A stretch of 64,000 nucleotides of DNA. Source: a virus. Taxonomy: Duplodnaviria > Caudoviricetes. The stretch spans positions 1 through 64,000 of the IMG/VR virus record IMGVR_UViG_2933096044_000001. One strand, given 5' to 3'. The number at the start of each line of letters is the position of its first letter. Position 1 is the stretch's first letter. The notes under the pieces are model-generated. The model did not search any database, had not been told where the DNA came from, and saw nothing but the letters and a program-made list of their open reading frames with translations. The position numbers were made by a program, and so were the translations under genes. Below, one piece after another: positions 79-64,000 of this stretch.

Positions 79-122
79 CTCCGGAGCCGGGTGCGCAGGT
101 TCGAATCCTGCAGGGGGCACCA
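79..122 (+). mobile_element. att core: 3' half of tRNA-Arg(CCG), anticodon loop to CCA; not an intact tRNA
   Basis: ctCCGga-gccgggtgcgcaggttcgaatcctgcagggggcacca has the anticodon loop, T-arm (GTTCGAATC) and CCA. Upstream sequence has no D-arm or 5' acceptor strand. The integrase ends 130 bp away. Confidence 0.85.
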
Positions 123-131
123 TCTCGACAG

Positions 132-162
132 CCAGGTCAGACGTCGTCTGACCTGGCTTTTT
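132..162 (+). terminator. intrinsic terminator after the tRNA 3' end
   Basis: ccaggtcagacg/cgtctgacctgg inverted repeat followed by a T-run. Confidence 0.6.
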
Positions 163-251
163 GCATGTTTCCGTGATCATCAGCTCTTGCCATCCTGCGA
201 CACCATTCGGCACGTTGAGACGACTTCCGCGTGCCGTACGCGTTCCCTTGA

Positions 252-1622
252 TCATCCGCTGTCCTCTCGGGCGCGGTTCATGCGCTCGATCCACACCTCG
301 TCGTATCCGGCCATGCAGCGGTGGTAGATCCGCTGCAGGACCTCCACGCTGTGCCCGGCCCATTCGGCCACCTGAGCCGCGGGCACCCCAGCGGATAACC
401 GCCAGGTGACGCCCGCGTGCCGCAAGTCGTACGGCTTGCCCATCAACGGGGTGGCGAGCTCCTCGGGTGTGAGCGCGAGCGCGCGGACCTTCTTCCATAA
501 CCGTGAGTAGGTGGACTTCGGGACCGGACGTCCGCTCTCGGAGCGGAACAACCGGCCGTCCTCGGCCACCCCGAACCGGGCAATGTGCTCGCGTAATAAC
601 GTCACCAGCTCGGGCGAGATCGGCACCACCCGGACGGTCTTCTTCGACCGCCCCTTCAGAGAGCGGTCGTCGTGCAGTTCGCCGCTGTCGGTGTAGTCCT
701 TGCCGACCTCGGGCTTGGACGCCTCCAGGATGAGCTTCCCCCATCCCGACTCCGGCAGGTGGCAGTCCGCCCTTCGCAGCCGGCTCACCTCGGCCGGGCG
801 CATCATCGCGTAGTACATGCAGCCGAAGAAGGCCACGAAGCGCCTGCCCTGGCGGCGTCCGACATAGCTGCACGCGGTGAGCGCTTCGGCGATCTGACGC
901 GGGTTACCCACCGCGCGGGGATCAACGGCGTCATCGACGTCGGGCTGAGCCCAGTCGCTCCTCAGCGCCTTGTCGTCGAGCGGGTTCGCTCCTAGCCGTT
1001 CCTCAACAACGGCGTATCGCAGTGAGTTGTAGAAGATGCGGCGGCGGCGCCGGTAGTACTCCGGTGAGGCTTCTTTGCCGTCGAGTTGCGTGGCGCAGGC
1101 ATCGAGGGCGTTGGCGACGATCTTGCGTTCGGTCAGCGCGGCCAGCGGCAGGGAAGCCCTGTGCAGCCACCGCAGTGCCGCCTGTACGTCGCTTGGCCGT
1201 TCCTCCTCGGGCCGGGACTGGATGAACGCCCATCGCAGGGCGTCGCGCAGCGTCTCAGGGTCGGGCGCGCCGCGCAGATTGCGGGCCAGGACCGGCGTCA
1301 CGGCAATCATGCTTTCGACGATGGAGCGCCGGGAGTTGGCGGACGCTTTCGGCCACTTCTTGGCGACGTAGTCGAGCGCGTGCTGAAACCAGGTGATGTC
1401 CTGGTCTTCCCGATGCATCGACTCCGGGAGCCCCGTCTCGGTGTCGAACGCCTCGCCCTTCCGGGCGGCGGCCATGAGTTCGGAGCGGCGAGAGTCCGCC
1501 AGGCCGTGGGTGGTGAACGACTCATTGAACACCTTGCCCTCGACGACCCATCGGAGCATGAACGGCGCACGCTTGCCCTTGCGGACCGTGATCTTCCAGA
1601 AGCGGACGTTGTAGCTCTTCAC
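252..1622 (-). CDS. int: tyrosine integrase (AICE/actinophage type)
   Basis: Catalytic motifs MRPAEV, YDLRHAG, WAGHS...IY. GTG at 1622 overlaps the xis stop (GTGA); the ORF-track start at 1790 is probably too long. Confidence 0.92.
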   Translation of the reverse strand: MKSYNVRFWKITVRKGKRAPFMLRWVVEGKVFNESFTTHGLADSRRSELMAAARKGEAFDTETGLPESMHREDQDITWFQHALDYVAKKWPKASANSRRSIVESMIAVTPVLARNLRGAPDPETLRDALRWAFIQSRPEEERPSDVQAALRWLHRASLPLAALTERKIVANALDACATQLDGKEASPEYYRRRRRIFYNSLRYAVVEERLGANPLDDKALRSDWAQPDVDDAVDPRAVGNPRQIAEALTACSYVGRRQGRRFVAFFGCMYYAMMRPAEVSRLRRADCHLPESGWGKLILEASKPEVGKDYTDSGELHDDRSLKGRSKKTVRVVPISPELVTLLREHIARFGVAEDGRLFRSESGRPVPKSTYSRLWKKVRALALTPEELATPLMGKPYDLRHAGVTWRLSAGVPAAQVAEWAGHSVEVLQRIYHRCMAGYDEVWIERMNRAREDSG

Positions 1623-1873
1623 GCCTGCTCCTGGTTGTCGAGCCACTCCTGCAGCCACTCCGGGCGGATGCGGTAGGGACCGTTGCCGGGTAGCCGGATC
1701 GAGCGCGGAGCCTGGCCTCTCTCCTGCCACCGGTCCCAGGTGCGGCGGGACACCTTCAGCTTCGTGCACACCTCGTCGAGGGTCAGCCATTCCTCGTCAC
1801 TGCTGGATCTGATCGAGCTGCTGGCCTTGGTCCTGGCTGCGGTGCGACGCGTGGACCTGCTTGTGCGCGCCAT
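1619..1873 (-). CDS. xis: excisionase / AlpA-MerR-like HTH
   Basis: WLTLDEVCTKLKVSRRTWDRW...PRSIRLPG; AGGAG-type RBS; coupled to int. Confidence 0.85.
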   Translation of the reverse strand: MARTSRSTRRTAARTKASSSIRSSSDEEWLTLDEVCTKLKVSRRTWDRWQERGQAPRSIRLPGNGPYRIRPEWLQEWLDNQEQA

Positions 1874-2166
1874 GATAGGAGCGCTCCTTCCCTTGTCGTA
1901 TGGACGGGTTGGGAGTGCGGCCCCGGGCGGTGTGCTGGCAGGCGTTCGCCCGGGGTCGCCTTTGCTGGTCAGAGGGGACTGTTCCGGCTGGATGTCTAGA
2001 GTGGCGCGCGAGGCGCTATTGTCTCGCTTGTCATCTCAGTCGTTACATCCGTTACGCGGACACGGTAGCGCAATGTGTCGTTTTGTCCAGCATGCAACGA
2101 CAAGTCACGTCAAGGCTTCTATATGCAGATAAGGCATATGTGTCTTATTTGTCGCAAATGACGGTC

Positions 2167-2454
2167 TTAGTAATCCCAGGTCAGCCACGCCACCAGCACC
2201 AGCGCCGACCCCACCAGCGCTGACGCCCAGCCCTCACCCCATGTCAGCGCCGCCAGGAGCCACGACGATGTGACTGTCAAGGTCACAGGCAGGAGACGAG
2301 CCCCCACCGTCAGCAAAGGCACCAGCGCCGACGACAGCAGGGCCGCAGCAGGTAACACCAGGGCCAGGTCAGGGCTCACTCCCGCAGCACCCGCCGCAGC
2401 CTGCCAGGAGCACAACCACGCCAGCATGATCAGCGACCGTGCCGCCGTACCCAC
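2167..2454 (-). CDS. small multi-TM membrane protein
   Basis: 95 aa, very hydrophobic, directly follows the TraB-like gene. Confidence 0.6.
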   Translation of the reverse strand: MGTAARSLIMLAWLCSWQAAAGAAGVSPDLALVLPAAALLSSALVPLLTVGARLLPVTLTVTSSWLLAALTWGEGWASALVGSALVLVAWLTWDY

Positions 2455-4403
2455 TACGCCACCCGCCTTCGGTCCGCGATCACGTACCGGTCACCGGCCC
2501 TGCATGCTTGGCCCTGCTCCACCAGCGACCCGGCCACCCTGAACGCCACCGGCAGCGCCAGCCCCGACCGCGACACCAACTCCGGCCCGGCCAGCCCCGC
2601 CTCGCCAGCGGCGGCCAGCAGCGACAGCACCTTCTCCTGCGCCGCGGCGACGTCGGCCTGCGCGAGGCCCGGCATCTGCGCGGGCACGTCGAGGTCGACC
2701 ACGTCGGCCGCTGCGATCGCGGGCGCGCGGCGGCCCTGGCCGCCCTTCTTCCGCGACGCCGGCGCGGCGTCGTCCGCGAGCGCGACCTTCGGCAGCTTCA
2801 CCGTCATCGCGGGCACGCCTCGCATGACCGCGCCCATCTTCGGGATGTGGCGGGCGCGCATCATCACCGGCCGGTCAGTCGCGCCCAGCAGGTAGCCGCA
2901 TCCCTTCGTCGACGCCCGCGAAGCCGGGAAGTACAGCTTGATCAGGTGCGGGTACGCCGTCATCCGCTCCCCGAACGTGGCCGACGCGATCCGGCGGTCG
3001 GAGACCCGCATCACCACGACGTTGCCCGCCGTGACCAGGGAGAGGATGTCGCCGCCGCCCATCCCGCCGACGTACACGTTCTGGTCCAACGTCCACACCG
3101 TCATGCCGCACTTGCTGCCTTCGGCGAGGATGTCGTGCACGATCGTGGCCAGGTCCTCGTGCCGCGCCACCAGGTGCCATTCGTCGATGGCGATGATCAG
3201 CAGAGGGAAGCCGTGCACGCCCGGGTGGTCGTACGACTGCACGCCGTGGTGCAGGTCGCCGTCCTCATCGGTCCACTCGACTTTCGACAGCAGCGCGCGG
3301 CGGCGCTGCATCTCGGCCTGGTAGGCGTACAGCCGCTCGCGGATAGCGTCGATGCCGAGCGCGTGCGGCACGTACGGCAGCAGAGCCGGGCAGCTCTGCC
3401 CGTCCTGCGGGTCGAGGTAGTCGAGCACGATCCGGCCCTCGGTGCGGGCGAACTCCGCAGCGGCGATCTTCAAGATGGAGCTCTTGCCGCTGCGCATCGC
3501 GCCGAAGATCCCGACCGGCAGTGGGCCGCTGCCCGGCTCCCACACCTGCAGACAGGCGTCACCCCAGCCGTCCTCGAACGGGCCGATCGGCAGGATCCCG
3601 GTGTCGAGGTTGAGCAGCGGCTTAGTCCACAGCTCCGGCTCCACGACGGCCAGCGTCTTGAGGAACGTCGCCATCGCGGCGTTCTGCGCGCCGTCGTCCG
3701 GCTCTTCCATGTGCACGTAGTTGATCGCCTTGCCGAAGTCGGAGCAGACCCGCTTGCGCGCCTGCATGGCGTCCTCGGTCGTCTGCCCGTCCAGCACCAC
3801 CCGGTAGCGGACCCCTTCGGCGCCGCCGCGCACGAACTCCTCGCGGTTCGTCAGCTTCGAGTCGGCGAGTGCGCCCCTCCTGCCCGCGGTCTTCTGCGCC
3901 CAGCGGATCACGATCGGGTCGGCCGCCTCCAGCTCCTTCGCCCGCGCTGCCTCCAGCGCACGGCGCTTACGCTCCGGCCGCGTGATGTAGCCGCGGTTTC
4001 GCCACACGAACGGAACCGTCCACAGACCGGCCGCCGCGAAGTACACGCTCTGCATCAGCCCGGTCGCGCCCACCTCGGCCGCGACCGGCAGCCACATGCC
4101 CGCGCCGGCCTGCCACCAGCGCCCCGCGAGGAGCTTGCGCGTGCTCGGGAACAGGGTGCGCACCGTCGCCGCCGCGGCGTAGACAGCGGCCTCACCAGCG
4201 AGGACCTGCCAGGCGGGCACGTCGCCCAGGTGCAGGGCCGCTCCCGTCCCCCACACGCCAGCGACGGTGGCGTGCGGGGCGACGGCGCGGCGGTAGCGGT
4301 GGGCGGCCTTCTTCGCGACCGCCCTGGCGGCCCAGGCCAGGGCCTGCGTCTGCTCGTCCTGCTCCTGTTCGGGCTGCAGGTCGGGCGTGGTGCGGCGAGC
4401 CAC
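2454..4403 (-). CDS. traB: FtsK/SpoIIIE-family conjugative DNA translocase (TraB-like)
   Basis: N-terminal TM segments, Walker A GAMRSGKS, Walker B LIIAIDEWH, C-terminal winged-helix-like region; AICE context. Confidence 0.78.
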   Translation of the reverse strand: MARRTTPDLQPEQEQDEQTQALAWAARAVAKKAAHRYRRAVAPHATVAGVWGTGAALHLGDVPAWQVLAGEAAVYAAAATVRTLFPSTRKLLAGRWWQAGAGMWLPVAAEVGATGLMQSVYFAAAGLWTVPFVWRNRGYITRPERKRRALEAARAKELEAADPIVIRWAQKTAGRRGALADSKLTNREEFVRGGAEGVRYRVVLDGQTTEDAMQARKRVCSDFGKAINYVHMEEPDDGAQNAAMATFLKTLAVVEPELWTKPLLNLDTGILPIGPFEDGWGDACLQVWEPGSGPLPVGIFGAMRSGKSSILKIAAAEFARTEGRIVLDYLDPQDGQSCPALLPYVPHALGIDAIRERLYAYQAEMQRRRALLSKVEWTDEDGDLHHGVQSYDHPGVHGFPLLIIAIDEWHLVARHEDLATIVHDILAEGSKCGMTVWTLDQNVYVGGMGGGDILSLVTAGNVVVMRVSDRRIASATFGERMTAYPHLIKLYFPASRASTKGCGYLLGATDRPVMMRARHIPKMGAVMRGVPAMTVKLPKVALADDAAPASRKKGGQGRRAPAIAAADVVDLDVPAQMPGLAQADVAAAQEKVLSLLAAAGEAGLAGPELVSRSGLALPVAFRVAGSLVEQGQACRAGDRYVIADRRRVA

Positions 4404-4412
4404 GTGGTGCTC

Positions 4413-5369
4413 CTAGTTCTCGTAGAAGGTCATGCGGCGGACCACCTTGACCGGCGCGGACTTCACGGAGCGGGCGATGTCTCCGTGGCCGTTGTCGAGC
4501 GCCGAGATAACGGCCGCTACGGCTGGCTGGGCGCCGCCGCACGCGATCACCACGTCGGCGGTGTGGCGGGTAGCGATAGCAGCCGCGTTCGCTTCCTGCT
4601 CGGCCTGGGCGAGGACTTCCCACATGCGAGTGATCGTCCGGTTGTCCAGGCCGTCCGCCTGCACGGCTTGGAACGCCTGCAGTGCGAGGGCGTACTTGTT
4701 GCGAGCGCGGGCGGCGACGTCCATCGCGTCGTCGTGCACGTTGCGTGCGTCCGTCTCGAGAACGCCCGACGCTCTGAAGAAGGCCCGCAGCCAGTTCATG
4801 AATCTGTCAAAACCGCCCGTGGCCAGCGCCTCCTGGAGTTGGGGGACGGTGGGCAAAGGGGTGACAGTGCCATTACCGGCAGGCACGAGGGGGGCCTGCG
4901 ACATGTCGATCCCTTCGAGTTCCACAGCAGGTGCGGGGTTGTGAACCTGGTCGTCGAGCCGCTTTGTCTCCACCGCCGACGGCTCGGCCGGGCGTGACCG
5001 TGCGACGGTGATCTCGATCTTCGGCGGGGAAGGTGGGGCGACAGCGGGACGAGCAGGCTCCGGAGGCGGCGGAGTGTGCGGTCGGACCTGCTCAACAACG
5101 ATGGGTTCGACCGGCCGCGACTCGTCGCGAGCCTCGCCGTCCTGTCGTTCAGCGACGCCGCGCGGCGCGGCGTCGCGTGCGGGCTTGGCTGGCCCGAGGG
5201 CACGCTTGACCCAGGCGATCGCGACGCGAGCCCAAATCTGCTCGACTTTGTACTCGGTAGGCTCTGCGGGCTGGTCTGGCTCCGGCTTTCGGAAGAAGAA
5301 CCAGCCGCCGACGATGAACAGCGCGAACGCCACGATCACGGCGAGCACCGCGAGTAGGGCGTCGCTCAT
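4413..5369 (-). CDS. membrane-anchored protein with Pro-rich linker and helical C-terminus (transfer accessory)
   Basis: Start MSDALLAV, coupled to the upstream stop; N-terminal TM helix. Confidence 0.6.
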   Translation of the reverse strand: MSDALLAVLAVIVAFALFIVGGWFFFRKPEPDQPAEPTEYKVEQIWARVAIAWVKRALGPAKPARDAAPRGVAERQDGEARDESRPVEPIVVEQVRPHTPPPPEPARPAVAPPSPPKIEITVARSRPAEPSAVETKRLDDQVHNPAPAVELEGIDMSQAPLVPAGNGTVTPLPTVPQLQEALATGGFDRFMNWLRAFFRASGVLETDARNVHDDAMDVAARARNKYALALQAFQAVQADGLDNRTITRMWEVLAQAEQEANAAAIATRHTADVVIACGGAQPAVAAVISALDNGHGDIARSVKSAPVKVVRRMTFYEN

Positions 5370-5815
5370 GACCAGTTCTCCACAGCCTGGCGCATGACCT
5401 CGACGGTGAACTCGTCGTACGCGACGGGTCCCCAGACTGAGCCGAACGCGATCCCGCCGAAGATCCACAGGACGGAGCAGGCCACGAAGGTGGGCATGTC
5501 GGGCTTGGCGTCCTTCGCGATGTCCTTCACAACGGCTCCGGCGAGGAACGCGAACGCAGCGGCGAGCAGGAAGAGAACAACCGAGCCGACGAGGGTCGCG
5601 ATCGAACCGCGCGTGGCCATTTCCACGAGCAGCGCTCCGACGTTCACGAACAGGCGACCGGTCGGCAGCAGGAACATGCTGGCCGAGAACATCACCAGCA
5701 GGAGGACGGCGATCACGCCGAGTGGCTTGCCGGGCAGCTTGTCCTTCTTGCGGACGCCCGCGAAGACCCAGCCGAGGCCGAATGAGAAGCCACCGCCGAG
5801 AACAAGAGCGATCAT
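5366..5815 (-). CDS. integral membrane protein (Spd-like candidate)
   Basis: Start MIALVLGG; about 4 TM segments. Confidence 0.6.
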   Translation of the reverse strand: MIALVLGGGFSFGLGWVFAGVRKKDKLPGKPLGVIAVLLLVMFSASMFLLPTGRLFVNVGALLVEMATRGSIATLVGSVVLFLLAAAFAFLAGAVVKDIAKDAKPDMPTFVACSVLWIFGGIAFGSVWGPVAYDEFTVEVMRQAVENWS

Positions 5816-5829
5816 GAGGGGTTTGCCTT

Positions 5830-6369
5830 TCAGAGCAGAGCTGGCAGGAGGGGAAGGAAGATCATCAGCAGGTAGGACCAGACCGTGATCGGGCCCCAGA
5901 ACTTCAGGCCGGGCCAGCAGGCGGCGGACCAGGCGGCGACCCACACGCGAGAAAACCCGGACAAGGACTTGAGCGGCGGGAGCTGCGCGCGGCATAGGCC
6001 AGGGAGGCCCTCCTCGCGGAAGCGGCGCCAGCGTCGGCGGGAGTCGCCCGCGCCGAGAAACGCGATCGAGGTGCACACGAAGCACCAGCAGACGGCGAAG
6101 ACGCCATGCACCCGCGCGAACCAGTCGAGCAGCCCGGCCTCGAACGGCACGTACTCGCGCTCGCGGTGGTAGGCGCGCACCGTCGCGACCGAGGGCAGCC
6201 GCGCTGTGCGCACGCCGCGCATCCGAGCCCGCTGCTCCAGAACCTCGATCCAGGAGGGCCGCGCCGGCGCGACCGCGGGGGCGGAGCCGACTGCGGGGGC
6301 AGGCTGCTCGGCGGTCTTCGCGGGCTGCTCCGGCGGCAAGCCCTCGGGCGAGACGAAGGAGAACGTCAT
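5830..6369 (-). CDS. membrane protein
   Basis: Start MTFSFVSP coupled to the upstream stop; hydrophobic C-terminal half. Confidence 0.55.
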   Translation of the reverse strand: MTFSFVSPEGLPPEQPAKTAEQPAPAVGSAPAVAPARPSWIEVLEQRARMRGVRTARLPSVATVRAYHREREYVPFEAGLLDWFARVHGVFAVCWCFVCTSIAFLGAGDSRRRWRRFREEGLPGLCRAQLPPLKSLSGFSRVWVAAWSAACWPGLKFWGPITVWSYLLMIFLPLLPALL

Positions 6370-6746
6370 ATCGTCCGCCTCTCGGCGTCCTCGGTGTTGA
6401 GCTTCTCGGCCATCGCGCGGGTCTGCGTGCTCAAGTCCGTTGCGATGGTCGCGGCCCGCCCTGGGTCGTGCTCGGCGAGCTGCTTCAGCTCCGACGTCAG
6501 CCACTCGGCCGCCCGGAGGAACTCCGTCCACGGGTGGCGGGCGGCGGCGATCCGCTGCTCGGCGTACCGGTGGCGGTTGGACGCGGCCACTGCCCCTCCT
6601 TGATCACGAAGTGTGAGCGTGTTACGGTGCCCCTCGCGCGCGCCGCGCGCGGCGCGCGGCGCGCCCGCGCGTTGGGACTCCCGCTCGGACGACCCGAGGC
6701 CGTTCTGCGGCGGCACCCACACCTGTGCGTGGTCACGAACAGTCAC
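6366..6746 (-). CDS. hypothetical protein (alternative start 6590)
   Basis: GTGA coupling at 6746; strong AGGAGG before the GTG at 6590; helical C-terminus. Confidence 0.5.
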   Translation of the reverse strand: MTVRDHAQVWVPPQNGLGSSERESQRAGAPRAARGAREGHRNTLTLRDQGGAVAASNRHRYAEQRIAAARHPWTEFLRAAEWLTSELKQLAEHDPGRAATIATDLSTQTRAMAEKLNTEDAERRTI

Positions 6747-7129
6747 GACGCCTCCTCGGCGCAGGCCCGCGCGAACGCGTCCCAATCCGGCTCGCGAGCG
6801 ATCTCCGGCAGCGACTCCAGGTGCCACGCAAGGAGCGCTCGCGGCACCCGGAGCGCGACCGGCTCGGCGGTGCGCAGGTCCCAGCGCACGAACTCCTCGT
6901 CCAGAGGCCAAGCGGCCAGCGCCCCACACTCCGCGCGCCTGATCAGGCCCTCGGTGAGCACGTCCAGCGGCGCGTCCACACCGAGCTGGCGCTCGACCGC
7001 GAGCCGGACGAGGTACGGGCTGTCGGCGCGGAACGCCGCCTCGACCATGACGACGGTGGGGATGTCGGCGAGGTGGTCCCAGGTGGGGATCGGCATGTGA
7101 CGGACCACGATCCCGTTGAGGGCGGTCAT
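6743..7129 (-). CDS. hypothetical protein
   Basis: ATGA-coupled ORF in the operon, normal composition. Confidence 0.65.
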   Translation of the reverse strand: MTALNGIVVRHMPIPTWDHLADIPTVVMVEAAFRADSPYLVRLAVERQLGVDAPLDVLTEGLIRRAECGALAAWPLDEEFVRWDLRTAEPVALRVPRALLAWHLESLPEIAREPDWDAFARACAEEAS

Positions 7130-8646
7130 GCTGCGTCTCCTGTCGCGGTGGCACGTTCATCAGTGCGGCCCGATGTCTTGGTCCGGTCGCCGGGCCCGTC
7201 CCGTGGTCCGGTCCGTGGTCCGGTCGCGCCGCCGCGGTGGCCGGGCCGCGGGTCCGGTTGGTCCGGTCCGGAAAGAAGCCCCATCAGGTCGGTGGCGACC
7301 TGCGTCGAGGCGCTCTGCCCCGCTTCGCGAAGCGCAGCCTGGAGCCTGCGGCGGGTGAGCTTCTGTCCCTCTCGCTTGAGCCGGCCCGCGATCGTCCGGC
7401 CCAGCGGCAGCAGCTCGTTCACCCGGTCCGCCGAACCGGTCGTGCTGCTGCGTACGGGCTTCTTGTTGGTCCGCTTGGTCCGGTCACGTGACCCCGGAGC
7501 GGGAAGGGCGTCGGCGGGCTTCTGGTCCGGTCGGTCCGGCGCGGGGACCGGACCAGCGGGCCGCCGCGCGGTCCGCTTCCTGGTCCGGTTCTTGGTCCGA
7601 ACCATCTCCCGGTAGCGGGTCCGGAGCCTGGTCCGGTAGCGGGGGCGGTGCTCGCTCTCCGGAGTCGGTTCCTGGTCCGCTGGTACGGTCTGCGGCTCCT
7701 CCGCCGCGACGGCCGGACCAAGCGGCGGCCGGTATCGCGGCACCAGACCTGCGCCCACCGAGTTGATGAACACGGCCGCGTCGTGCATGGCCTTCTCCGC
7801 GTCCGGCCGAAGGCCGCGGGTCTCCTCCGCGAGCGCCGCCATCCGGGTCAGCGTGAGCTGAAGCTGTGACCGCTGAGAGGCGATCACCGCGCCCTGCGCC
7901 TGGACGACCGACCGCCACGTCATGTCCACGCGGCGGGCCTGGCGCACGACCTGGACGGCGACGGTCGGAGACTGCTCGCCCTCACCGACCGCCCACCGGA
8001 ACGCGGCGAACGTCTCCGGCAAGTGCAGCAGCCAGCGCATCGGCGAGAACTTGGGCGCTCTCGGATCGATCAGGCCCTTGTCCCGCAGGTCCTTGCGGTG
8101 CAAGTGGCGCGAGTGCATGCTCCACAGCCACGGGCTTGCCAGAGAGCAGGCGGCGAACAGCTCTGGCACGAGCGGCACGTGCGTGTAGTTGAGGTAGCCC
8201 GCGCCAGCGCCGATAAGGTACGACGTCATCCGCGTGCGCCAGGCCGAGTCGCCCTCCCGCAAGGCGACGTGCGCGTGCCACGAGACGTAGACGGCGACGG
8301 ACTCGACGATCGCGGCGCCGAGCACGGCCAGCAGCACCGGCCAGCCCAGCTCGTGGAACACGAGGAACTGGCCGGCCACCGCGACGATGTTGACGCCGAC
8401 GTTCGTCACGCTCATGACCATCAGGCGGCCCGCTGCCTGCAAGCGGGTCTTCCACCGCTCGCGCGCCTGCTCGCGTTTACGAGCGCGGTCGCTGCGGGCG
8501 GTTTCGTTGCGTTCGCGCTGGTCGACCTCGGCCGCCCGCGCGTCAGCGCGCCGGGCCTCGCTGGCCAGGCGGCGGCGCTGGATCCGGAGTCGCTCGGCTT
8601 CGAGAGCCCGCTTCTCCTTCTCCGGGTCGGCCTTAAATAGCACCAT
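7126..8646 (-). CDS. DUF2637/SpdB-like membrane protein with coiled coil and low-complexity C-terminus
   Basis: N-terminal coiled coil, about 4 TM segments, GLIDPRAPKFSPMRWLLH motif; AGGAGAG RBS. Confidence 0.7.
   Translation of the reverse strand: MVLFKADPEKEKRALEAERLRIQRRRLASEARRADARAAEVDQRERNETARSDRARKREQARERWKTRLQAAGRLMVMSVTNVGVNIVAVAGQFLVFHELGWPVLLAVLGAAIVESVAVYVSWHAHVALREGDSAWRTRMTSYLIGAGAGYLNYTHVPLVPELFAACSLASPWLWSMHSRHLHRKDLRDKGLIDPRAPKFSPMRWLLHLPETFAAFRWAVGEGEQSPTVAVQVVRQARRVDMTWRSVVQAQGAVIASQRSQLQLTLTRMAALAEETRGLRPDAEKAMHDAAVFINSVGAGLVPRYRPPLGPAVAAEEPQTVPADQEPTPESEHRPRYRTRLRTRYREMVRTKNRTRKRTARRPAGPVPAPDRPDQKPADALPAPGSRDRTKRTNKKPVRSSTTGSADRVNELLPLGRTIAGRLKREGQKLTRRRLQAALREAGQSASTQVATDLMGLLSGPDQPDPRPGHRGGATGPRTGPRDGPGDRTKTSGRTDERATATGDAA
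7179..7720 (+). repeat. cluster of TGGTCCGGT direct repeats (candidate clt / TraB recognition sequences)
   Basis: Exact 9-mers at 7179, 7204, 7216, 7259, 7476, 7523, 7581, 7629, plus about 8 variants and inverted copies at 7548 and 7713. Confidence 0.7.
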
Positions 8647-8939
8647 CAGAGCTCTCCTATTTCGCTTGCGATACCGCTGGCGTTATATGATCGCTCGCTG
8701 GAATTATGAGCATGATCAAAACACAGCCGCGCATGCTGGATGGCCGCGCCTGCGTCACCGCGCACCTTGGACACGCCGCAGGCGAAGCACTCGAACACGC
8801 CAAGCGATGTCAGCGCGGGGCAGGCGTTAAGCCGCACCGCTTCCCAGGCCACGCTGCCGTAGACACGGATCACACCGTGCCAGCCGTACGCGAGCAGGTG
8901 ACACGCGCCACCATCTGGGGCGACATGCGCCGCGGTCAC
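8646..8939 (-). CDS. small Cys/His-rich hypothetical protein
   Basis: Coupled at both ends (GTGA, TGATG); CxxC...H..C. Confidence 0.45.
   Translation of the reverse strand: MTAAHVAPDGGACHLLAYGWHGVIRVYGSVAWEAVRLNACPALTSLGVFECFACGVSKVRGDAGAAIQHARLCFDHAHNSSERSYNASGIASEIGEL
8663..8682. promoter_or_regulatory. palindromic element copy 1 (cgcttgcg-atac-cgctggcg)
   Basis: Just upstream of the RBS of the 7126-8646 gene; 23/24 identical to the copy before terS. Confidence 0.65.
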
Positions 8940-9355
8940 GCCGCACTCCTGGCAGACTCCGCTTTGCGTTTGATCGCCTCGGCCTTAAGTGCTTCCACCA
9001 GCGCTTTGACCTGCTTGGACCGTTCGGAACCGAGAACGCCGCCGCGCGCACCGTGCAGACTGTGGACCGACCCGCCGTAGACGTAGATGGACAGCGCCTC
9101 CTCGATGACGGTCACCCGGAGGCACTCGTCGCGCACCGTGCACGGCTCACACAGAAGACGAGCCTTGCGCCGCGTCAGGCCCTGCGCCACCCAGCGGTCA
9201 TCGTGACTGCCAGCGCAGATGCCGCTCTCGCTGACCCTTTCGGTCAAGCTGCGAGCCTCGGCGCATAGCCGATGCTCCAGTGGCGGGGCCAACGTGGACG
9301 ACTTGGCGTGCTCGTGGCCAGCGCTCGTGTCGGACGAGGTCAGGCTGGTGCTCAT
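8936..9355 (-). CDS. WhiB-family Fe-S transcription factor (divergent)
   Basis: C...CEPC-x5-C spacing, with GARGG in place of G[VI]WGG. Confidence 0.65.
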   Translation of the reverse strand: MSTSLTSSDTSAGHEHAKSSTLAPPLEHRLCAEARSLTERVSESGICAGSHDDRWVAQGLTRRKARLLCEPCTVRDECLRVTVIEEALSIYVYGGSVHSLHGARGGVLGSERSKQVKALVEALKAEAIKRKAESARSAA

Positions 9356-9646
9356 CGGTCACCTGGTTTCTGTCGCAAGGAGAAGGGCGGCGATGCGGCG
9401 ACCCCGGGATGATCGCTCTCGGGCACCGTTGGCGTTGACGTGATTTCTGCCAGAAGCACGCCAGGCGCAACAGCGGCCAACCGCTAAGCTGTTGGTACGA
9501 TCATGGTACGCACACCAAGAACGTACCGCAACTCCTGGGCCTGTCGCCGAGCCAAGATCATGCGCCCGTCACACTGGACGGATCATGAATGCCTCTAAAG
9601 TTGACTCCACAGCCCGGAAACCGTCCGAGGAGCACATGGAGAACGG

Positions 9647-10324
9647 ATGCCGATCCCGCCCGCGAAAGCTCAAGGCATAGCGGACCAGATCGCCGCCAGA
9701 ATCAGGCGAGGCGAATACCCACCGGGGAGCTGGCTCCCCTCGGAACGCGAGCTTTCGCAGGAGCATCAGGCAAACCGGTCCACCATCCGCAACGCCCTCA
9801 AGCTGCTCGCCGACGAGAGCCTCGTCACTCGCATCCCCAACCAAGGCGTGCAAGTCTCCGACCCCAGCGCCCCCCGGAGCACGGCCCAACCGACACAGCC
9901 GGCTCCAGAGGTCGCTTGCGAACAACGGCGATGCTGCCTCACGCTTGCCGGTATGACGGCATGGCTCGCATCCCAGGACAGGCTGACACTCGTGCGGATC
10001 GACGACATCACGTCCGTGCAGATCGTCGTCCCGGGCGAACCCGATCCGCGCCTACACCCCACCAAGCGGCTTGACCGCGCCCAGGAGGTGCAGATCATGG
10101 TCGGAAGCCGCGCCGGCGTCGCGATGTGCGCGACAACCTGCCCTGGTCGTGACGCGCTGTGGGCTCGGGACGAACTGCTGCATGTGGTGAACGCGATGCG
10201 ACGGAAGACGGCCGACAGCGCCGAGCTGTACGTGCACGCGCCCGCGTCGTGGCCACGCAAGAGACCTGGACAGTTGTGGCAGACGTCCTCCCATCTGCCC
10301 GCGCCGGAACTCATTCAGCAGTGA
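9647..10324 (+). CDS. GntR-family regulator with atypical C-terminal domain
   Basis: IRRGEYPPGSWLPSERELSQE..NRSTIRNAL wHTH. Confidence 0.75.
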   Translation: MPIPPAKAQGIADQIAARIRRGEYPPGSWLPSERELSQEHQANRSTIRNALKLLADESLVTRIPNQGVQVSDPSAPRSTAQPTQPAPEVACEQRRCCLTLAGMTAWLASQDRLTLVRIDDITSVQIVVPGEPDPRLHPTKRLDRAQEVQIMVGSRAGVAMCATTCPGRDALWARDELLHVVNAMRRKTADSAELYVHAPASWPRKRPGQLWQTSSHLPAPELIQQ

Positions 10325-10371
10325 TCGAGAACGCCTAATCAATTCGCTCGTTCTCCGGATAACATGCCCTC

Positions 10372-12426: not shown

Positions 12427-12441
12427 CGCGCTGCTCCCCTT

Positions 12442-17612: not shown

Positions 17613-17637
17613 CACGCACACTCCGTTCCTGGGGAAG

Positions 17638-49776: not shown

Positions 49777-49793
49777 TAGGGGTCAGCTCCTTT

Positions 49794-54842: not shown

Positions 54843-55817
54843 TCATTCCAGCGCCGACGCCACCAACTGTGACGGGTCGCGCTCCAGTTGGCGTCCGGAG
54901 TGCACGTAACCCATGGTGGTGTCCATGGATTCGTGATCAAGTGCTTCCTTGATCTCGAATGGGTCCGCGCCCAGTTCCGCAGCCAGCGACGCCCACGTGT
55001 GCCGCAGCACATGTGCGGTGACCTTCGCGAGGATGCCGGCCTGACGGCCGATGCGCGTCACCAGGGCCGACGCTGACGACCGGTAGAAGCGGCCTCCCGT
55101 GTCGGTCACGAAGATCCGCCCGCTGAGCTGTGACATCTCGACGCCGGCGCGGCGCGCCCGGTCCTCCAGATACCGGTCGAGCGCGTATCCGGTCTCCACT
55201 GGGAGGCGGCGCTTCTTCGGCTTGGTGCCCTTGCCGACGATCCGCAGCGTCCGCAGCCCGCGCTCATGCCCGAGCGCGCTCAAGTCGGCGGAGATCGCTT
55301 CTTCGATCCGGATCCCGGTGTGCAGCAGGACTCGGATGAATGCCGAGGTGCGCAGCCGGGCCGGCCCGTGGTCGCTGTCGGCCGCCGCCACCAGGGCGCG
55401 GGCCTCGTCCCGCGTGAGCGCGGTCGTCTCGGAGTACCCTCGTGACACCTTCGGCCTACGGGTCCGCTTGAAGCGGTTGGCGTCGATGATCTCCTCGTCG
55501 GCGAGGTACTCGTACCAGGACGACACAGCCGAGATGCGGCGCTGCATGGTCTTCGGCGGGACCGGCTTTCCAGCCTGGAGTTCGAGCCACCGCTTGTAGA
55601 CGTCGCCGTGGGACTTACGCGCCTTCAGCGGGTCGAGGCCGGTCTCGCCGCAGAACGCGAACCACCGCTCGATCTCCAGCCGGTAGGCGTCGCGGGTGTT
55701 CTTCGAGTCGAAAGACAGCAGCCACGCCATCGTCGCGTCCTGGGCGAAGCCCAGCAGAGTCGACGGGAAGGCGATCCTCCCGGCTCCGCTCGGCTCGCGA
55801 ATCAACTCAGCGGTCAT
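54843..55817 (-). CDS. XerC/D-like tyrosine recombinase
   Basis: HTGIRIEE, VGKG, HVLRHT, LDHES..TTMGY. Confidence 0.9.
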   Translation of the reverse strand: MTAELIREPSGAGRIAFPSTLLGFAQDATMAWLLSFDSKNTRDAYRLEIERWFAFCGETGLDPLKARKSHGDVYKRWLELQAGKPVPPKTMQRRISAVSSWYEYLADEEIIDANRFKRTRRPKVSRGYSETTALTRDEARALVAAADSDHGPARLRTSAFIRVLLHTGIRIEEAISADLSALGHERGLRTLRIVGKGTKPKKRRLPVETGYALDRYLEDRARRAGVEMSQLSGRIFVTDTGGRFYRSSASALVTRIGRQAGILAKVTAHVLRHTWASLAAELGADPFEIKEALDHESMDTTMGYVHSGRQLERDPSQLVASALE

Positions 55818-61534: not shown

Positions 61535-61537
61535 TTG

Positions 61538-62314
61538 CTACTCGCCCGCGTTACCGCTGGCGTTATGTGATTCTCGACGCTCGCGCCACCTGCGTACGGC
61601 GACATAGGACGCCGTAAGGGCTGCTGTCGCGAGTAACGCGCCGCCCGTGAGCAGAAGCGGCAGATTGATTCCCTCGTCCGACACGCGGCGCATGCTGGAA
61701 GCGCTCGGAGAGTCGGACGGGTCCGGCGTGACGGTGGTGTCCGGCGCGACGGTGACGGCAGGTCCGGGCGTGCCGTTCCTGCCGTTGATGCCGTCCCTGC
61801 CGGGCGTACCGGGGTTGCCCTGCCCGCCCGGCTCACCCTGGGGACCGGGCGAGCCTGCGGGACCGGTCGGACCGGGCTCGCCGGGCTCACCCTTCGGACC
61901 CTGGGGGCCTGCCGGACCCTGGTCTCCCTTCGGACCCTGCGGGCCTGCCGGACCCTCCGGACCCTGCGCGCCGGTCGGACCGGGCTCGCCCTGCGGACCC
62001 TGAGGACCGGGCGAACCCTGCACGCCTGCCGGACCCTGAGGACCGGGCGAACCGGCGGGGCCGGTGAGGGTCACCACGTCCATGCAGAGCGGGAACGGCA
62101 TCACGGTTTTGATCACCTGGGGCGGTTCACCGGGAACGGTGATCTCCGCCGTAGGCGTCACGGTGACGCACACCGGTACTTCGGCGTACGCCGTGGTGGT
62201 CGCGCTGCTAGGCACGACTTGTGCGGCGATGGCCAGCGTTGCGGCGGCGGTCGCTGCGCTGAGAAGCGCTGCTCTCGCTGCCCTGGCCGTTGATCGGTTT
62301 CTCACGCTGCACAC
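61538..62314 (-). CDS. secreted, C-terminally anchored collagen-like protein
   Basis: Signal peptide, about 33 Gly-X-Y triplets, C-terminal TM + RRWRERR. Confidence 0.85.
61543..61562. promoter_or_regulatory. palindromic element copy 6 (cgcccgcg-ttac-cgctggcg)
   Basis: At the 3' end of the collagen-like gene; 26/30 identical to the copy 1 context. Confidence 0.6.
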
Positions 62315-62776
62315 TCTCGTTTTTCGGATAACGGAGTGTCCAGTGTTGTCAAGTTTTCGTTATACACACGTTATAAGGCGGGGCTCCAGCTATACCCCAA
62401 TACCCCATCTGGCCTGCGACAACCTACTAAGTTGGGACGACAAACTAAGTTCCGGGCGCAGTCGAACCATGATCCACCGACCCGCGCCCAGCCGCCGCCA
62501 TAGTCACCTTTGGGTGGTGTCGAGGCTGGCTGGTGCGGTGTGGTTTTGCGCGTTGTTGTCGCTTGTGAGCGCTTATGTGTGCAGGGGTTTCTCCTTGTAC
62601 CGGTCTGCATGTGTTCGTGCTTGTGTGTGGACGCTGTCAGGTCTTTCGCTGGTGTTCCGTGTCTGGTCGTGGTCGAGGTTCTGCGTGTGGTCCTGTTTCA
62701 TGCGAAAACCCGTCATCGACGACCAGGACGGTTGGGCCTGGGTGGGTCGGTGACGGGTTGGTGGTGGTGCTGGTGG

Positions 62777-63568
62777 TTAGTCGTCTCGGGCGAGCCGGTC
62801 TGCGGCGCAGGATCGGCAGGGTTCGGCCATGTAGGGGTGGGTGGGGCACATGCGGCCGGCGCCGCGGTGTTCGCGGGGTGGTTGGGGCAGGTACTGGCTG
62901 GGGTCGGCGCGGAGTGCTCGGAGGACGTACCGGTAGGGGTTTTTCACGGTGCTGTGGGCGCGGCCGAGGATGTCGCGCCGGATCTGCGCGGCTTGCTGGT
63001 CCGTGAGGTCCTGCGCGGCGAGCGGAGCGAGTTCGCGCTTGAGCATCTCGTCTACCTGGGAAAAGTCCTGTCCGTCTGTCTGGTTGTTGTCGTGGTCGCG
63101 CGGGGGGTACGGCGGGATAGATGACTGACTAGAGAAGTTGTGTTGGGAGTGGGATTGGGATGGGATTGGGGCAGCGTCTTGCGACACGTCGTCGGACGCG
63201 TCACGAGACGCGTCTCCCTGTGATCTTGACTGGTCTCGTTTCCGCTCAAGCCACCGCTCTTGACGTGCTCGTTTAGCGTCACGACCCTCCCTGATCTTCT
63301 CTGCGGAAGGCTGATATTCGAGGTAATCGTGCACGCACCAACCTGAGTCCGTTCTCTCCCACAAACCGACCGAAACCAGCTCACTCGCGTACCGTTTCGG
63401 AGCGCGAATGTCGCTCACGAACCTCAGGTCACGCTCCGGGATCACCCCGTCGGTCAAGTTGTCGTTGCACCAGCACAGACCACTCACGAACAGGCGGAAC
63501 GCCTGGTCGGACAGGTGCCGCACCTTCCGATGGTGCGGAAACTGATCATCGACACGAACCCACGGCAT
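62777..63568 (-). CDS. phage replication initiator (RepA/O-like)
   Basis: MPWVRVDDQFPHHRKV..CWC..NLTDG, VHDYLEYQPS; internal repeats; AAGGAAGG RBS. Confidence 0.75.
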   Translation of the reverse strand: MPWVRVDDQFPHHRKVRHLSDQAFRLFVSGLCWCNDNLTDGVIPERDLRFVSDIRAPKRYASELVSVGLWERTDSGWCVHDYLEYQPSAEKIREGRDAKRARQERWLERKRDQSRSQGDASRDASDDVSQDAAPIPSQSHSQHNFSSQSSIPPYPPRDHDNNQTDGQDFSQVDEMLKRELAPLAAQDLTDQQAAQIRRDILGRAHSTVKNPYRYVLRALRADPSQYLPQPPREHRGAGRMCPTHPYMAEPCRSCAADRLARDD

Positions 63569-63776
63569 CGAGCGCCGCCCTTCCCTTCCTGAACATGAAG
63601 CGGGGACCCGCCACCGAGGGAAGTGGTCGAGCCCCCACCGTATATGCGCCGATATGTGCCCTGCGGCCCTGGCCAGGTTCGCGTGCTCCGATCATGCCGG
63701 GTGCTTCACGGCCCCGGGGAGTGGAGCGGCGATGCAAGTTGGTGCAGCCTTGTTGTAGTTCCTGCGTTAACCACCT

Positions 63777-64000
63777 TCACGCGCGCCGTGACGTCCGCCC
63801 CGTCAGGTCGTACACCTCACGCCGGCGCGGGTCGGACAACACGTCCCATGCCTCCGTCACCGCCTTGAACCGCTCGGCCGCCGCGGCGTCGCCCGGGTGT
63901 AGGTCCGGGTGGAGCTGGCGGGCCAGGCGCCGGTACGCCCTCTTGATGTCGAGCGCGGTGGCCCTCTGGTCGACGCCGAGCCGCTCGTGCAGTCCGCCCG
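63777..64000 (-). CDS. J-domain (DnaJ-like) protein, 5' end outside the window
   Basis: Hand translation [26 protein letters not shown]...[14 protein letters not shown]; not in the ORF track. Confidence 0.85.

Follow-up and report, generated by a model that had tools for sequence, protein, structure and literature searches.

The DNA described here very probably belongs to a single element of 99,050 bp, a circular phage-plasmid of siphovirus-like, temperate type from Nonomuraea, likely to be both packaged in virions and transferred by a TraB-type protein. The host is a filamentous soil actinomycete, and the element also carries a DNA pump of actinomycete-plasmid type with its partner genes. 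The window (the 64,000-nucleotide stretch analysed) is the first 64 kb, or about two thirds, of this element. The initial annotation had proposed one element with virion, lysis, cargo, TraB/Spd, excisionase and integrase genes behind a single att site, and this is supported in four ways: because the sequence forms a circle in which attP occurs once, because one att pair encloses both modules in three relatives, because the linkage between the TraB-like and portal genes is conserved and co-diverging across the genus, and because the same palindrome precedes operons of both modules, here and in relatives. We infer that the element spreads both as virions and by conjugation. Relatives combining phage and plasmid-transfer functions are already published, the closest known being pZL12 of Streptomyces and PhiNon1 of Nonomuraea, for which passages of PMC5431353 report both circular and integrated forms by PCR.

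The 99,145-bp virus record is one contig, classed as DTR and rated 100% complete. Bases 1-95 are identical to bases 99051-99145, and with this 95-bp overlap the contig closes to a circle of 99,050 bp that has a single attP. The features around the attachment site are:

1-78, plus strand: left arm (P) of attP, continuous with contig end 99,050; in the relatives G001 and G163 its homologue lies on the left side of the distal core
9-25 and again at about 222-238, within the attP arms: arm-type-like repeat GTGCCATACGCGTTCC, read from the sequence
79-121, plus strand: attP core, corresponding to tRNA-Arg(CCG) between anticodon loop and acceptor end (3' part)
122-251, plus strand: right arm (P') of attP, with a terminator-like hairpin at 130-158
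252-1622, minus strand: tyrosine integrase (PF00589, E 1.4e-7, 31.9 bits against a cut-off of 27.1)
1619-1771, minus strand: excisionase-like HTH protein (HTH_17, E 6.7e-5, 23.5 bits, under the cut-off of 27)

A tRNA-Arg core had been annotated, and it was indeed found: positions 79-121 agree base for base with the final 43 nt of tRNA-Arg(CCG) on the related chromosome G001 and match a Nonomuraea chromosome at 100%, while the P' arm has a 93% match beside the intact tRNA in G001. No whole tRNA was detected by ARAGORN in the window or the 99-kb contig. The other att copy had been expected beyond 64 kb; because the contig is a closed circle, such a copy is impossible here, and no further copy of the core occurs anywhere in the 99 kb, so that no internal att pair delimits the first 23 kb either. 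The integrase and excisionase genes lie near att on the minus strand, as annotated; the excisionase-like ORF may start at 1873. The integrase is 83% identical in G001 and G005 and missing from the circular G003 contig. A strand bias was likewise confirmed: our own GC3-based caller put 61 of 69 ORFs of the window on the minus strand, and 112 of 124 when the entire contig was taken.

Both states of the site left traces in the sequencing runs. In run X1, which may be the source, the element contigs had word depths of 598-636 and the contigs with the tRNA 5' half and chromosomal flank 186-190, values that are not copy numbers, as the tool itself warns; loose ends carried the tRNA 5' half before position 79 and, after 120, flanking chromosome. 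Run X2 contained a copy of 98.7% identity that was bridged, at chromosomal depth, to the tRNA 5' half and 1.5 kb of chromosome, the P' arm being contiguous with the tRNA 5' half.

Relatives in Nonomuraea are found in two forms, inserted with one att pair at their ends or assembled as circular contigs that lack int. On the complete chromosome G001, tRNA-Arg (4358585-4358658) and a second core about 89.8 kb away enclose the TraB-like and virion genes in an element of 89.9 kb; in G163 both modules lie between cores at 13,023 and 113,962 (about 100.9 kb), and in G002 both are within an att-bounded relative at tRNA-Arg(TCT). Syntenic copies are present in G003 and G005 as circular or att-ended contigs, that of G003 being circular, and the ORFs conserved out of 124 number 86 in G001, 96 in G005 and 95 in G003. 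Across the genus, the TraB-like gene was found in 14 of 110 genomes, all 14 with terL or portal; in nine of them it shares contig and strand with the portal gene at a distance of 29-40 kb. In five of five further genomes, a profile search detected a TraB-like gene that is diverged and stands 34-41 kb away from portal, which brings same-strand linkage at 29-41 kb to 14 of the 19 genomes tested. No stop occurs inside the TraB-like match in the 14 genomes, and portal identity rises with TraB identity (Spearman 0.85 over 14 points that are not independent). Such comparisons mark the TraB-like module as a conserved, co-diverging backbone part of the phage lineage.

In the light of these genomes it is hardly credible that a prophage and a separate AICE bearing the lanthipeptide cargo were fused by the assembly or stand in tandem at a single tRNA. 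Tandem arrays at att do occur, as in G002 and G163, where the core is present a third time 7-9 kb past attR, and the cargo and transfer block do sit at one end of the map; however, these extra cores lie outside the 96-101-kb element and not between the modules, our element has no internal core copy, the gene order recurs in independent assemblies including a complete chromosome, the TraB-like/portal linkage is conserved across 14 further genomes, and the modules have an operator motif in common.

Around attP, the genes form an AICE- or plasmid-like block, with a RepA candidate on one side and TraB-like, small membrane, DUF2637, WhiB and GntR proteins on the other:

contig 97,798-98,994, directly across attP from the transfer genes: RepA candidate, plasmid-type wHTH
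2167-2454, minus strand: small ORF, hydrophobic, following the TraB-like gene, no Pfam match
2454-4403, minus strand: TraB-like FtsK-fold DNA translocase, 649 aa (predicted structure and Walker A motif)
4413-5369, 5366-5815, 5830-6369, 6366-6722 and 6743-7129, minus strand: five small ORFs of the transfer operon
7126-8646, minus strand: DUF2637-like membrane protein whose tail is rich in R/T/G/P (PF10935 under its cut-off at E 0.0067; phrog_10376, E 3.4e-14)
7180-7636, plus strand: array of TGGTCCGG(T) repeats in a single orientation, candidate clt (TraB loading site)
8662-8691, plus strand: copy of the palindrome-type operator ahead of spd-traB (motif at 8672)
8936-9355, minus strand: WhiB-like regulator (PF02467, 24.7 bits, above cut-off)
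9647-10324 and 10372-11106, plus strand: two divergent GntR-family regulators (GntR and UTRA in the pooled scan)

The traB gene named in the initial annotation is not recognised by sequence libraries, and its identification as a TraB-like translocase comes from the predicted fold. The protein had no match of note in Pfam, PHROGs, NCBIfam or PDB sequences, scoring 12.4 bits against PF01580 (FtsK_SpoIIIE) under a cut-off of 24. The AF2 model (pLDDT 76 overall, above 85 across most of the core, 160-540) has N-terminal helices, Walker A GAMRSGKS at residue 301 and a C-terminal winged helix, and Foldseek aligned it with the FtsK motor (6t8g, E 1.3e-12), TcpA (6o1x) and EccC, in line with a motor of the FtsK/TcpA type; the N-terminal helices fall below the threshold of a simple hydrophobicity test, which makes a membrane anchor no more than putative. 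Homologues were found in 27 actinomycete plasmid records and no phage records, and the gene has a dN/dS of 0.33-0.46. The five ORFs upstream, without Pfam match, are conserved in G001, G003 and G005, and three have hydrophobic segments; they are called Spd-like by position and hydrophobicity. The GntR regulators, 61-85% conserved in relatives, are Kor-like by position. PhiNon1 similarly has DUF2637 together with a TraB-like gene of 26% identity, and in both PhiNon1 and a 92.7-kb Streptomyces plasmid the DUF2637 gene is placed alike beside the TraB-type gene.

The motif GGTCCGG occurs 11 times in 7180-7636 against 26 times across the rest of the 99 kb. An identical 8-mer cluster stands at the homologous place in G003 and G005, whereas G001 has a different 8-mer there and a different TraB winged helix as well; the array may co-vary with the winged helix, as this single switch suggests. 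Since it falls inside a coding tail of low complexity, the repetition could also be one of the protein. The palindrome claimed to precede terS and the spd-traB operon was recovered before that operon and before the gene upstream of terL, where a plus-strand operator copy at 49793-49822 (motif at 49803) precedes the packaging genes. Allowing at most one mismatch, TACCGCTGGCGTT has four matches in the window where 0.06 are expected and eight in the whole contig, all on the same strand; both operator copies are conserved in place in G001, G003 and G005.

Between the transfer block and the virion set lies an FxLD-type class I lanthipeptide cluster (11299-20947, minus strand), which bears out the annotated cargo and includes, with further ORFs:

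11299-12426, minus strand: DAO-like ORF, weak match below cut-off
12442-14484, minus strand: LanB-C/PCMT methyltransferase fusion
14524-15585, minus strand: LanC
15582-17621, minus strand: LanB
17673-17852, minus strand: FxLD precursor peptide of 59 aa, with FELD motif and Cys/Ser/Thr-rich core
20168-20947, minus strand: Methyltransf_19

Its DNA matches fxlM/LanB/LanC clusters on Streptomyces plasmids at 73-76%. Core cluster genes (g013, g015-g018 and g020) had no match in G001, G003 or G005, and the cluster occupies a variable cargo slot. A few of its ORFs have partial or paralogous matches in the same three relatives.

Recombination and replication genes were less simple than annotated:

54843-55817, minus strand: second tyrosine recombinase, Xer-like, 324 aa (phrog_1, E 2.6e-39; Phage_integrase and Phage_int_SAM_1 in the pooled scan)
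62777-63568, minus strand: candidate phage-type replication initiator, with N-terminal resemblance to actinophage proteins

A second integrase had been thought absent; this holds for the 11-23 kb junction and not for the element, given the Xer-like recombinase, which is 78-95% conserved in G001, G003 and G005 and 30% identical to that of the 92.7-kb Streptomyces plasmid. No att pair belonging to it was found in the element, and hence no separate phage integrase with its own pair. Contrary to the statement that the transfer module has no Rep, the RepA candidate lies just across attP, with weak HTH_36 matches and generic winged-helix fold matches (E at least 0.08). The Rep assigned to the phage part is traced to 62777-63568, which has no Pfam match and whose N-terminal 130 aa, about half the protein, share 35-38% identity with proteins of actinophages whose annotation reads replication initiation or RepA-like (296 records). 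Two supporting arguments of the initial annotation, no Rep beside the transfer genes and no second recombinase, were thus wrong.

Virion and lysis genes were found on the minus strand, as described earlier:

24345-25070, minus strand: endolysin with CHAP and peptidoglycan-binding domains (phrog_9589, E 2.4e-30; CHAP and PG_binding_1 in the pooled scan)
28157-32054, minus strand: distal tail proteins (phrog_31834, phrog_38009)
33659-36133, minus strand: tape measure protein, 824 aa (phrog_305, E 6.3e-66)
36293-37795, minus strand: tail assembly chaperone, major tail protein (36793-37266) and head-tail connector (phrog_3860, phrog_3884, phrog_2595)
39624-41489, minus strand: P22-coat-like major head protein (39624-40568) and scaffold-like protein (phrog_283, E 4.6e-69; phrog_8952; P22_CoatProtein in the pooled scan; dN/dS 0.03-0.09)
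41734-45178, minus strand: minor head/morphogenesis protein and portal (43610-45178) (phrog_12049, E 1.2e-92; phrog_533, E 8.5e-94)
47996-49776, minus strand: PBSX-type large terminase (47996-49282; phrog_2, E 1.4e-41) and the 165-aa ORF preceding it
49802-50557, minus strand: ParB-N-domain protein (phrog_8071, E 3e-39; ParB_N in the pooled scan)

These genes also bear on whether the element is a conjugative plasmid or AICE with phage-derived particle genes, its particles being defective or GTA-like, with fragments inside and no whole-element infectious virions, which we regard as distinctly improbable. The terminase is 55-57% identical to those of Streptomyces phages and 88-93-kb Streptomyces plasmids, and the closest phage terminases (about 56%) come from phages of 34-39 kb as against 99 kb here; the RepA-like gene is of plasmid type, and neither ParA nor recognised Rep, primase, helicase or polymerase families were found in about 140 ORFs scanned. 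Yet the head, tail, packaging and lysis sets are complete in a record rated as complete, the virion genes are intact, with dN/dS values of 0.03-0.18 for MCP, portal and terL that mark strong purifying selection, and element size is held at 90-101 kb across relatives despite differing cargo, as a headful limit would impose. The 88-93-kb Streptomyces plasmids moreover have the same terminase and coat types, and a lytic phage cycle is described for the 90-kb plasmid-phage pZL12 in passages of PMC4487206 and PMC5431353.

From a mechanistic point of view, the phage-plasmid would integrate at tRNA-Arg or persist as a low-copy circle, with multimers possibly resolved by the Xer-like recombinase. Upon induction, the PBSX-type headful terminase would package it, and lysis would set the particles free. 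In a separate process, TraB hexamers that load onto the TGGTCCGG array might pump the double-stranded circle into neighbouring hyphae or compartments, assisted by the Spd-like proteins, and one regulator reading the shared 20-bp palindrome may tie both programmes together.

Cross-walls in a mycelial host are a barrier that any episome must pass, and the TraB-like/Spd block could accordingly serve not intermycelial transfer but spread or segregation of the episome across septa and into spores, or another role in the phage, exclusion for example. We judge this rather unlikely, while it fits a module that is conserved backbone of the phage lineage and not sporadic cargo, and a protein too diverged for the Pfam FtsK model. 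SsgA-type septation genes are found on the same element in PhiNon1 and a relative, according to parts of PMC5431353. [quoted passage not shown]

The record from which the window is taken (hereafter the contig, 99,145 bp) has its bases 1-95 exactly duplicated at its end and is classed as a virus record with direct terminal repeats, 100% complete; the unit is therefore a circle of 99,050 bp. A physical terminal repeat of 95 bp was also considered, and is unlikely because the break falls within an att core which the chromosome also carries. Window positions 79-121 are indeed identical to the final 43 nt of a tRNA-Arg(CCG) gene in a related chromosome, ARAGORN detected no tRNA in the window or in the whole contig, and no second copy of the core was found across the 99 kb. 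A core without a second copy in a closed circle is thus an attP, and this molecule lacks the other att copy that the initial annotation expected past 64 kb.

Our own GC3-based ORF caller gave 124 ORFs in the contig, 112 of them on the minus strand (69 and 61, respectively, in the window), with the following main features:

252-1622: tyrosine integrase (int), adjoining attP
beside the integrase: excisionase-like ORF (xis), HTH_17
2454-4403 to 7126-8646, minus strand: transfer operon, with a 649-aa protein (2454-4403), five small ORFs, then a 506-aa DUF2637-like protein (7126-8646)
after the DUF2637-like gene: WhiB-like gene and two divergent GntR regulators
11.3-20.9 kb: FxLD-type class I lanthipeptide cluster, with LanB, LanC, a LanB-C/PCMT methyltransferase fusion and a precursor
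17673-17852: lanthipeptide precursor, 59 aa, with a FELD motif
24-50 kb: complete siphovirus set, with endolysin, distal tail proteins, tape measure, chaperone, major tail, connector and head/packaging genes
head/packaging genes: P22-type coat, scaffold, minor head protein, portal and PBSX-type large terminase
after the virion set: ParB-N protein and DNA methyltransferases
54843-55817: second tyrosine recombinase, Xer-like
beyond the window: RecT and YqaJ recombination genes, regulators and further methyltransferases

Terminase, portal, capsid and scaffold or maturation proteins were assigned from phrog_2, phrog_533, phrog_283, phrog_12049 and phrog_8952, and a pooled scan also returned P22_CoatProtein, SPP1_portal and Terminase_6N. 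The non-contractile tail set and lysis genes are present, with no sheath family among the families listed and no holin identified. Megablast of 23001-48000 and 1-11000 against a phage collection gave no match, nor did Rfam across the 99 kb. Among the early and middle genes, a collagen-triple-helix repeat protein (61538-62314, E 1.1e-16) and a pentapeptide-repeat protein (52941-54260, E 1.8e-12) were also observed.

Whether transfer and virion genes belong to one element was addressed through syntenic relatives in other Nonomuraea genomes (G001 to G005 and G163). Close homologues of the 649-aa protein, referred to as TraB-like, were found in five genomes, all five of which also carry the terminase (88-99% identity). 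In the complete chromosome of G001, the entire element is syntenic, flanked on one side by an intact tRNA-Arg(CCG) and on the other by a second core about 89.8 kb away, with the TraB-like gene and the virion genes both inside the att pair; the copy in G163 is likewise bounded by cores (at 13,023 and 113,962) and holds both modules. The same backbone is found in G002 at another gene, tRNA-Arg(TCT), with a different integrase, so the int-att cassette is exchangeable. A genome search for traB and terL within a single att pair, as the initial annotation had proposed, thus found the combination in G001, G163 and G002. Since the att pairs of these relatives enclose both the TraB-like and the virion genes, the reading as one element is supported, and a tandem or chimeric origin from two elements was rejected. 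Two of the arguments first advanced for a single element were nevertheless wrong, namely that no Rep lies beside the transfer genes and that there is no second recombinase.

Homologues of the 124 ORFs number 86 in G001, 96 in G005 and 95 in G003, and the transfer and virion genes are kept in all three. The G005 element is a 98.5-kb contig ending at the core. That of G003 is a 94.7-kb contig (C75) whose overlapping ends fall inside a pentapeptide-repeat gene; it has no int, xis or attP, and may be purely episomal. Only about 740 bp separate its RepA-like region from the region upstream of the TraB-like gene. Relatives also differ in which way round the short attP cassette (P arm, core and P' arm; window 1-260) sits with respect to the rest of the element: the integrase adjoins the tRNA in the window element, in G163, in G004 and in sequencing run X2, and the RepA-like end lies at the tRNA, with the integrase at the distal core, in G001 (L010/L015) and G002 (L029/L030).

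Two sequencing runs, inspected as Logan contigs, bear on the state of the element in the cell. Run X1 is possibly the source sample and, if so, not independent; its element contigs have word depths of 598 and 636, and for the contigs carrying the tRNA 5' half or the right-hand chromosomal flank of the core the values are 189.5 and 186, a ratio of about 3.2, although word depth, by the tool's own warning, does not equal copy number. These depths would be compatible with an episome of about three copies. Run X2, from another organism, holds an element copy with 52 differences in 3,922 bases, and a single contig, no deeper or shallower than the others of the run, links this copy with the 5' half of the tRNA and a further 1.5 kb of chromosome; this copy is in the integrated prophage state.

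The linkage of the TraB-like gene with the phage genes was indeed found well beyond the close relatives. The TraB-like protein was detected in 14 of 110 species genomes of the genus (E up to 1e-20), and terminase or portal was present in all 14. The TraB-like gene and the portal lie on one contig, on the same strand and 29-40 kb apart in nine of these genomes (the distance in G003 being counted over the circular junction), and on separate contigs in the other five. Portal homologues are found in 44 of the 110 genomes (E up to 1e-50). In a distant portal clade (62-66% identity), a profile built from 17 homologues revealed a TraB-like gene, diverged but on the portal's strand and at a distance of 34-41 kb from it, in five of five genomes, all of which the single-protein query had missed. 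The TraB-like gene was found at a fixed distance from the portal in 14 of the 19 genomes tested. At the family level, three of 151 sampled genomes had a match (E up to 1e-20); two of the three were already known, so with a single-protein query the lineage is not widely found outside the genus. Portal and TraB-like identities to the window proteins co-vary (Spearman 0.85, n = 14, the points not being independent), and pairwise dN/dS is 0.33-0.46 for the TraB-like gene and 0.03-0.18 for coat, portal and terminase. Within one genus, the TraB-phage linkage thus proves old, conserved and widespread; from this linkage, the co-varying identities and the dN/dS values, the TraB-like module is therefore a maintained backbone part of the phage lineage and not a recent accident.

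From a mechanistic point of view, the assignment of the 649-aa protein comes from its predicted structure. Pfam and PHROGs gave no match, PF01580 scored 12.4 bits (below the cut-off of 24), and searches of NCBIfam and of PDB sequences returned P-loop noise only, while transmembrane helices fell below a simple hydrophobicity threshold. The protein has a Walker A motif (GAMRSGKS), and an AlphaFold model built with 17 homologues (pLDDT 76 overall, >85 across most of residues 160-540) shows a C-terminal winged helix and matches FtsK motor domains (6t8g, E 1.3e-12), TcpA, which is an FtsK-like conjugation coupling protein, and EccC/EssC ATPases. Homologues detected by tblastn lie in 27 plasmid records from actinomycetes, the 50,697 phage records searched having yielded none, and three of the five small ORFs of the operon contain hydrophobic segments. 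The designation TraB-like is therefore by fold and context, and not that of a tested family member. The candidate clt is a co-oriented array of TGGTCCGG repeats: 11 copies of GGTCCGG fall in 7180-7636, inside the 3' portion of the DUF2637-like gene, compared with 26 over the remaining 98.6 kb. The identical 8-mer array is found at the homologous position in G003 and G005, and a different 8-mer in G001, whose TraB winged helix differs at four of 14 positions where the other three agree. This co-variation of repeat and winged helix is no more than a hint at a clt function for the array, as it comprises one switch only and the array lies in a low-complexity coding tail.

The transfer module had been described as lacking a Rep, a view that no longer holds, as a plasmid-type RepA candidate of 398 aa (contig 97,798-98,994), absent from our ORF calls, sits directly opposite int across attP. 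Its matches are weak HTH_36 ones only, and its fold search gave generic winged-helix matches only (E 0.08 or more), for which reason it is kept as a candidate. Homologues are carried by 52 plasmid records of actinobacteria, among them pNon2 of N. gerenzanensis and frequently close to where the record begins, as well as by many Nonomuraea contigs of about 94-112 kb; locus-tag numbers place the RepA-candidate and TraB-like genes side by side both in a 94-kb Microtetraspora plasmid and in the G003 element, which has no int. The candidate is frameshifted and split over two frames in the integrated G001 copy (element about 18,826-19,768); G005 and the circular contig of G003 have it intact. Once circularised, the block formed by Rep candidate, attP, int, xis, TraB-like gene, small membrane proteins and GntR is laid out like an AICE.

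The phage part had likewise been credited with a Rep; the ORF concerned is 62777-63568, and the N-terminal half of its protein resembles actinophage proteins annotated as replication initiators (35-38% identity). No curated Rep, primase, helicase or polymerase family was found among the approximately 140 ORFs scanned, of which 100 went through a pooled scan that lists the 25 families matched by most members, so that a lone weak Rep match could escape it. Among the per-ORF scans and these 25 families, no AICE-type Rep was found (RepSA, RepAM PF12307, Prim-Pol PF09250 and the plasmid families listed in the accessible text of PMC3218068). ESM Atlas held no usable match for a 346-aa ORF (contig 95,268-96,308), and a repeat search found no iteron array in the gene-poor stretch of 2.1 kb at 96.3-98.5 kb. 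All that the search found there was a 56-nt direct-repeat pair (contig 96,502 and 97,754; L002:12502-12557 and 13754-13809), 80% identical and 1,252 bp apart, with the last early gene to one side and the RepA candidate to the other. As for partition, no ParA was found, and a ParB_N protein and the Xer-like recombinase are present.

The earlier observation that the same motif precedes both the packaging and the transfer operons proved real: TACCGCTGGCGTT, with at most one mismatch, occurs four times in the window, against 0.06 expected. This motif, which is half of a 20-bp palindrome, occurs eight times in the contig, always on one strand and mostly just upstream of minus-strand genes, and G001, G003 and G005 have the palindrome motif at the homologous sites, ahead of the DUF2637 gene and of the packaging genes. 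The half-site GCGnTACCGCTGGCG has 28 matches with up to two mismatches over the 99 kb, with similar counts in relatives; examples lie at window positions 36081, 38917, 40593, 49799 and 61543. Judged by its distribution, the palindrome looks like an operator network spanning the element.

The lanthipeptide cluster shows the leader motif, LanB, LanC and PCMT-type methyltransferase (FxlM) that characterise the FxLD type, and matches other clusters annotated as fxlM and FxLD family lanthipeptide. Its core genes are absent from G001, G005 and G003. The corresponding slot holds a DnaE-like polymerase, a TPR protein and tailoring enzymes in G005, and a glycosyltransferase, a phosphoesterase and an EPSP-synthase-like gene in G001; the slot, which lies between GntR and the lysis genes, thus takes several alternative cargos, of which the lanthipeptide cluster is one. 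The polymerase of the G005 slot (L020:2926-6480) is a full-length DnaE-type DNA polymerase III alpha subunit of 1184 aa. At the edge of the slot in the window, 21233-21784 (plus strand) has a weak DprA-like match (DNA_processg_A, E 2e-4, below cut-off).

The combination of phage and plasmid transfer has a precedent in the Streptomyces plasmid pZL12, the original description of which is reportedly that of Zhong et al. in 2010, in J Bacteriol 192:3747. As a plasmid-phage, pZL12/ZL12 has had its replication, transfer and lytic cycle characterised, according to the accessible text of PMC3583192, PMC4487206 and PMC5431353; in those portions it resembles our element as a circular actinomycete plasmid of about 90 kb combined with a tailed phage with a conjugal locus (a major tra gene and adjacent genes), and its relative pSLE1 is given two putative integrases (PMC4487206). 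A 92.7-kb Streptomyces plasmid, presumably pZL12-like, has the same layout, with P22-type coat, PBSX terminase, tyrosine recombinase, TraB-type gene, DUF2637 and GntR; its identities to the element are 55% for terL, 41% for portal, 29% for coat and 30% for the recombinase, and it matches only eight of the 124 element ORFs. Unlike pZL12 and this plasmid, the element has TraB-like and RepA-like proteins of other lineages, as well as int, xis, attP, relatives in tRNA-Arg, no ParA found, and a lanthipeptide cluster. A second published case, PhiNon1 (59,257 bp), comes from Nonomuraea gerenzanensis; the accessible text of D'Argenio (2016, PMC5431353) describes it as a plasmid-phage detected as a circle and also inserted at the 3' end of a tRNA gene, and makes no mention of TraB, FtsK or conjugation. 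It shares with the element the host genus, a DUF2637 gene and a 654-aa TraB-like homologue (26% identity, E 1e-9 to 1e-14), but differs by its HK97-type capsid, other terminase, tRNA Val and a size 40 kb smaller, and only three of the 124 element ORFs match within its first 50 kb.

Likeness to the AICEs and to the TraB-clt-Spd-Kor plasmids of Streptomyces (pSAM2, SLP1, pSVH1, pIJ101) is found in a tyrosine integrase sited at the 3' end of a tRNA, xis, a translocase that in the element is FtsK-like by predicted fold and ends in a winged helix, downstream genes for small membrane proteins, regulators of GntR type, an 8-bp direct-repeat array, and a Rep (a candidate in the element) beside int. 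AICEs are about 9-24 kb in size. The element differs from them by its 99 kb, its complete tailed-phage gene set, a Tra below the PF01580 cut-off, and a Rep that is none of RepSA, RepAM and Prim-Pol. The accessible parts of te Poele (2008, PMC2440964), Ghinet (2011, PMC3218068) and Thoma (2015, PMC4447253) cover these systems. A site-specific recombinase does adjoin a tRNA-3'-end att site at which relatives are integrated, as Ghinet et al. set out for AICEs; in the terms of the same text, the element falls outside the AICEs on Rep type and, formally, on PF01580.

With the phage-plasmids (P1, N15, SSU5), as the accessible text of PMC7969092 and PMC12282955 presents them, it shares a phage set accompanied by maintenance genes of plasmid type (candidates in the element), a circular and, for the element, probably extrachromosomal state, a phage part that is conserved while the cargo varies, and a narrow size range; unlike general phage-plasmids, it also integrates. 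According to the accessible part of a 2025 review (PMC12282955), no phage-plasmid and no integrated prophage is conjugative. The phage and plasmid-transfer combination is already published, a kind known but little noticed. The CONJscan models are not known to cover TraB-type transfer. It is with CONJscan, through mating-pair formation and relaxase models, that conjugation was sought in the 2021 phage-plasmid survey (Pfeifer, PMC7969092), the accessible text of which makes no mention of Streptomyces or pZL12. Our results add the lineage-wide conserved linkage, the exchangeable int-att cassette with an int-less plasmid form, and a lanthipeptide cluster in the cargo slot.

We give even chances to the proposal that this Nonomuraea temperate phage lineage retains working TraB-type dsDNA conjugation as a core part of its genome. 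If true, the lineage would have three lifestyles (integrated prophage, low-copy plasmid and virion) and two independent horizontal routes, by either of which biosynthetic clusters such as the lanthipeptide cluster could be moved. Phage spread is fast, donor-killing, receptor-bound and limited by capsid size, while conjugation is slow, contact-dependent and donor-sparing; with a functional TraB-like module, these elements would escape the usual trade-off between the two; in the accessible literature, pZL12 is the one experimental precedent. This would also contradict the statement of the 2025 review that no phage-plasmid or integrated prophage is conjugative. An antibiotic-type cluster in a swappable slot offers a possible route for the movement of natural-product clusters in soil actinomycetes. 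Spread by both virions and conjugation is inferred from sequence, and the conserved linkage and cargo slot offer a concrete, testable system for it in a non-pathogenic soil actinomycete.

A third copy of the att core was also observed 7-9 kb past attR in two relatives (G002, L030:12592-12636; G163:C14:123084-123126), with a second integrase homologue just inside it in G002. These third copies suggest that a further, small element, perhaps a satellite or a small AICE, has inserted in tandem at this site.
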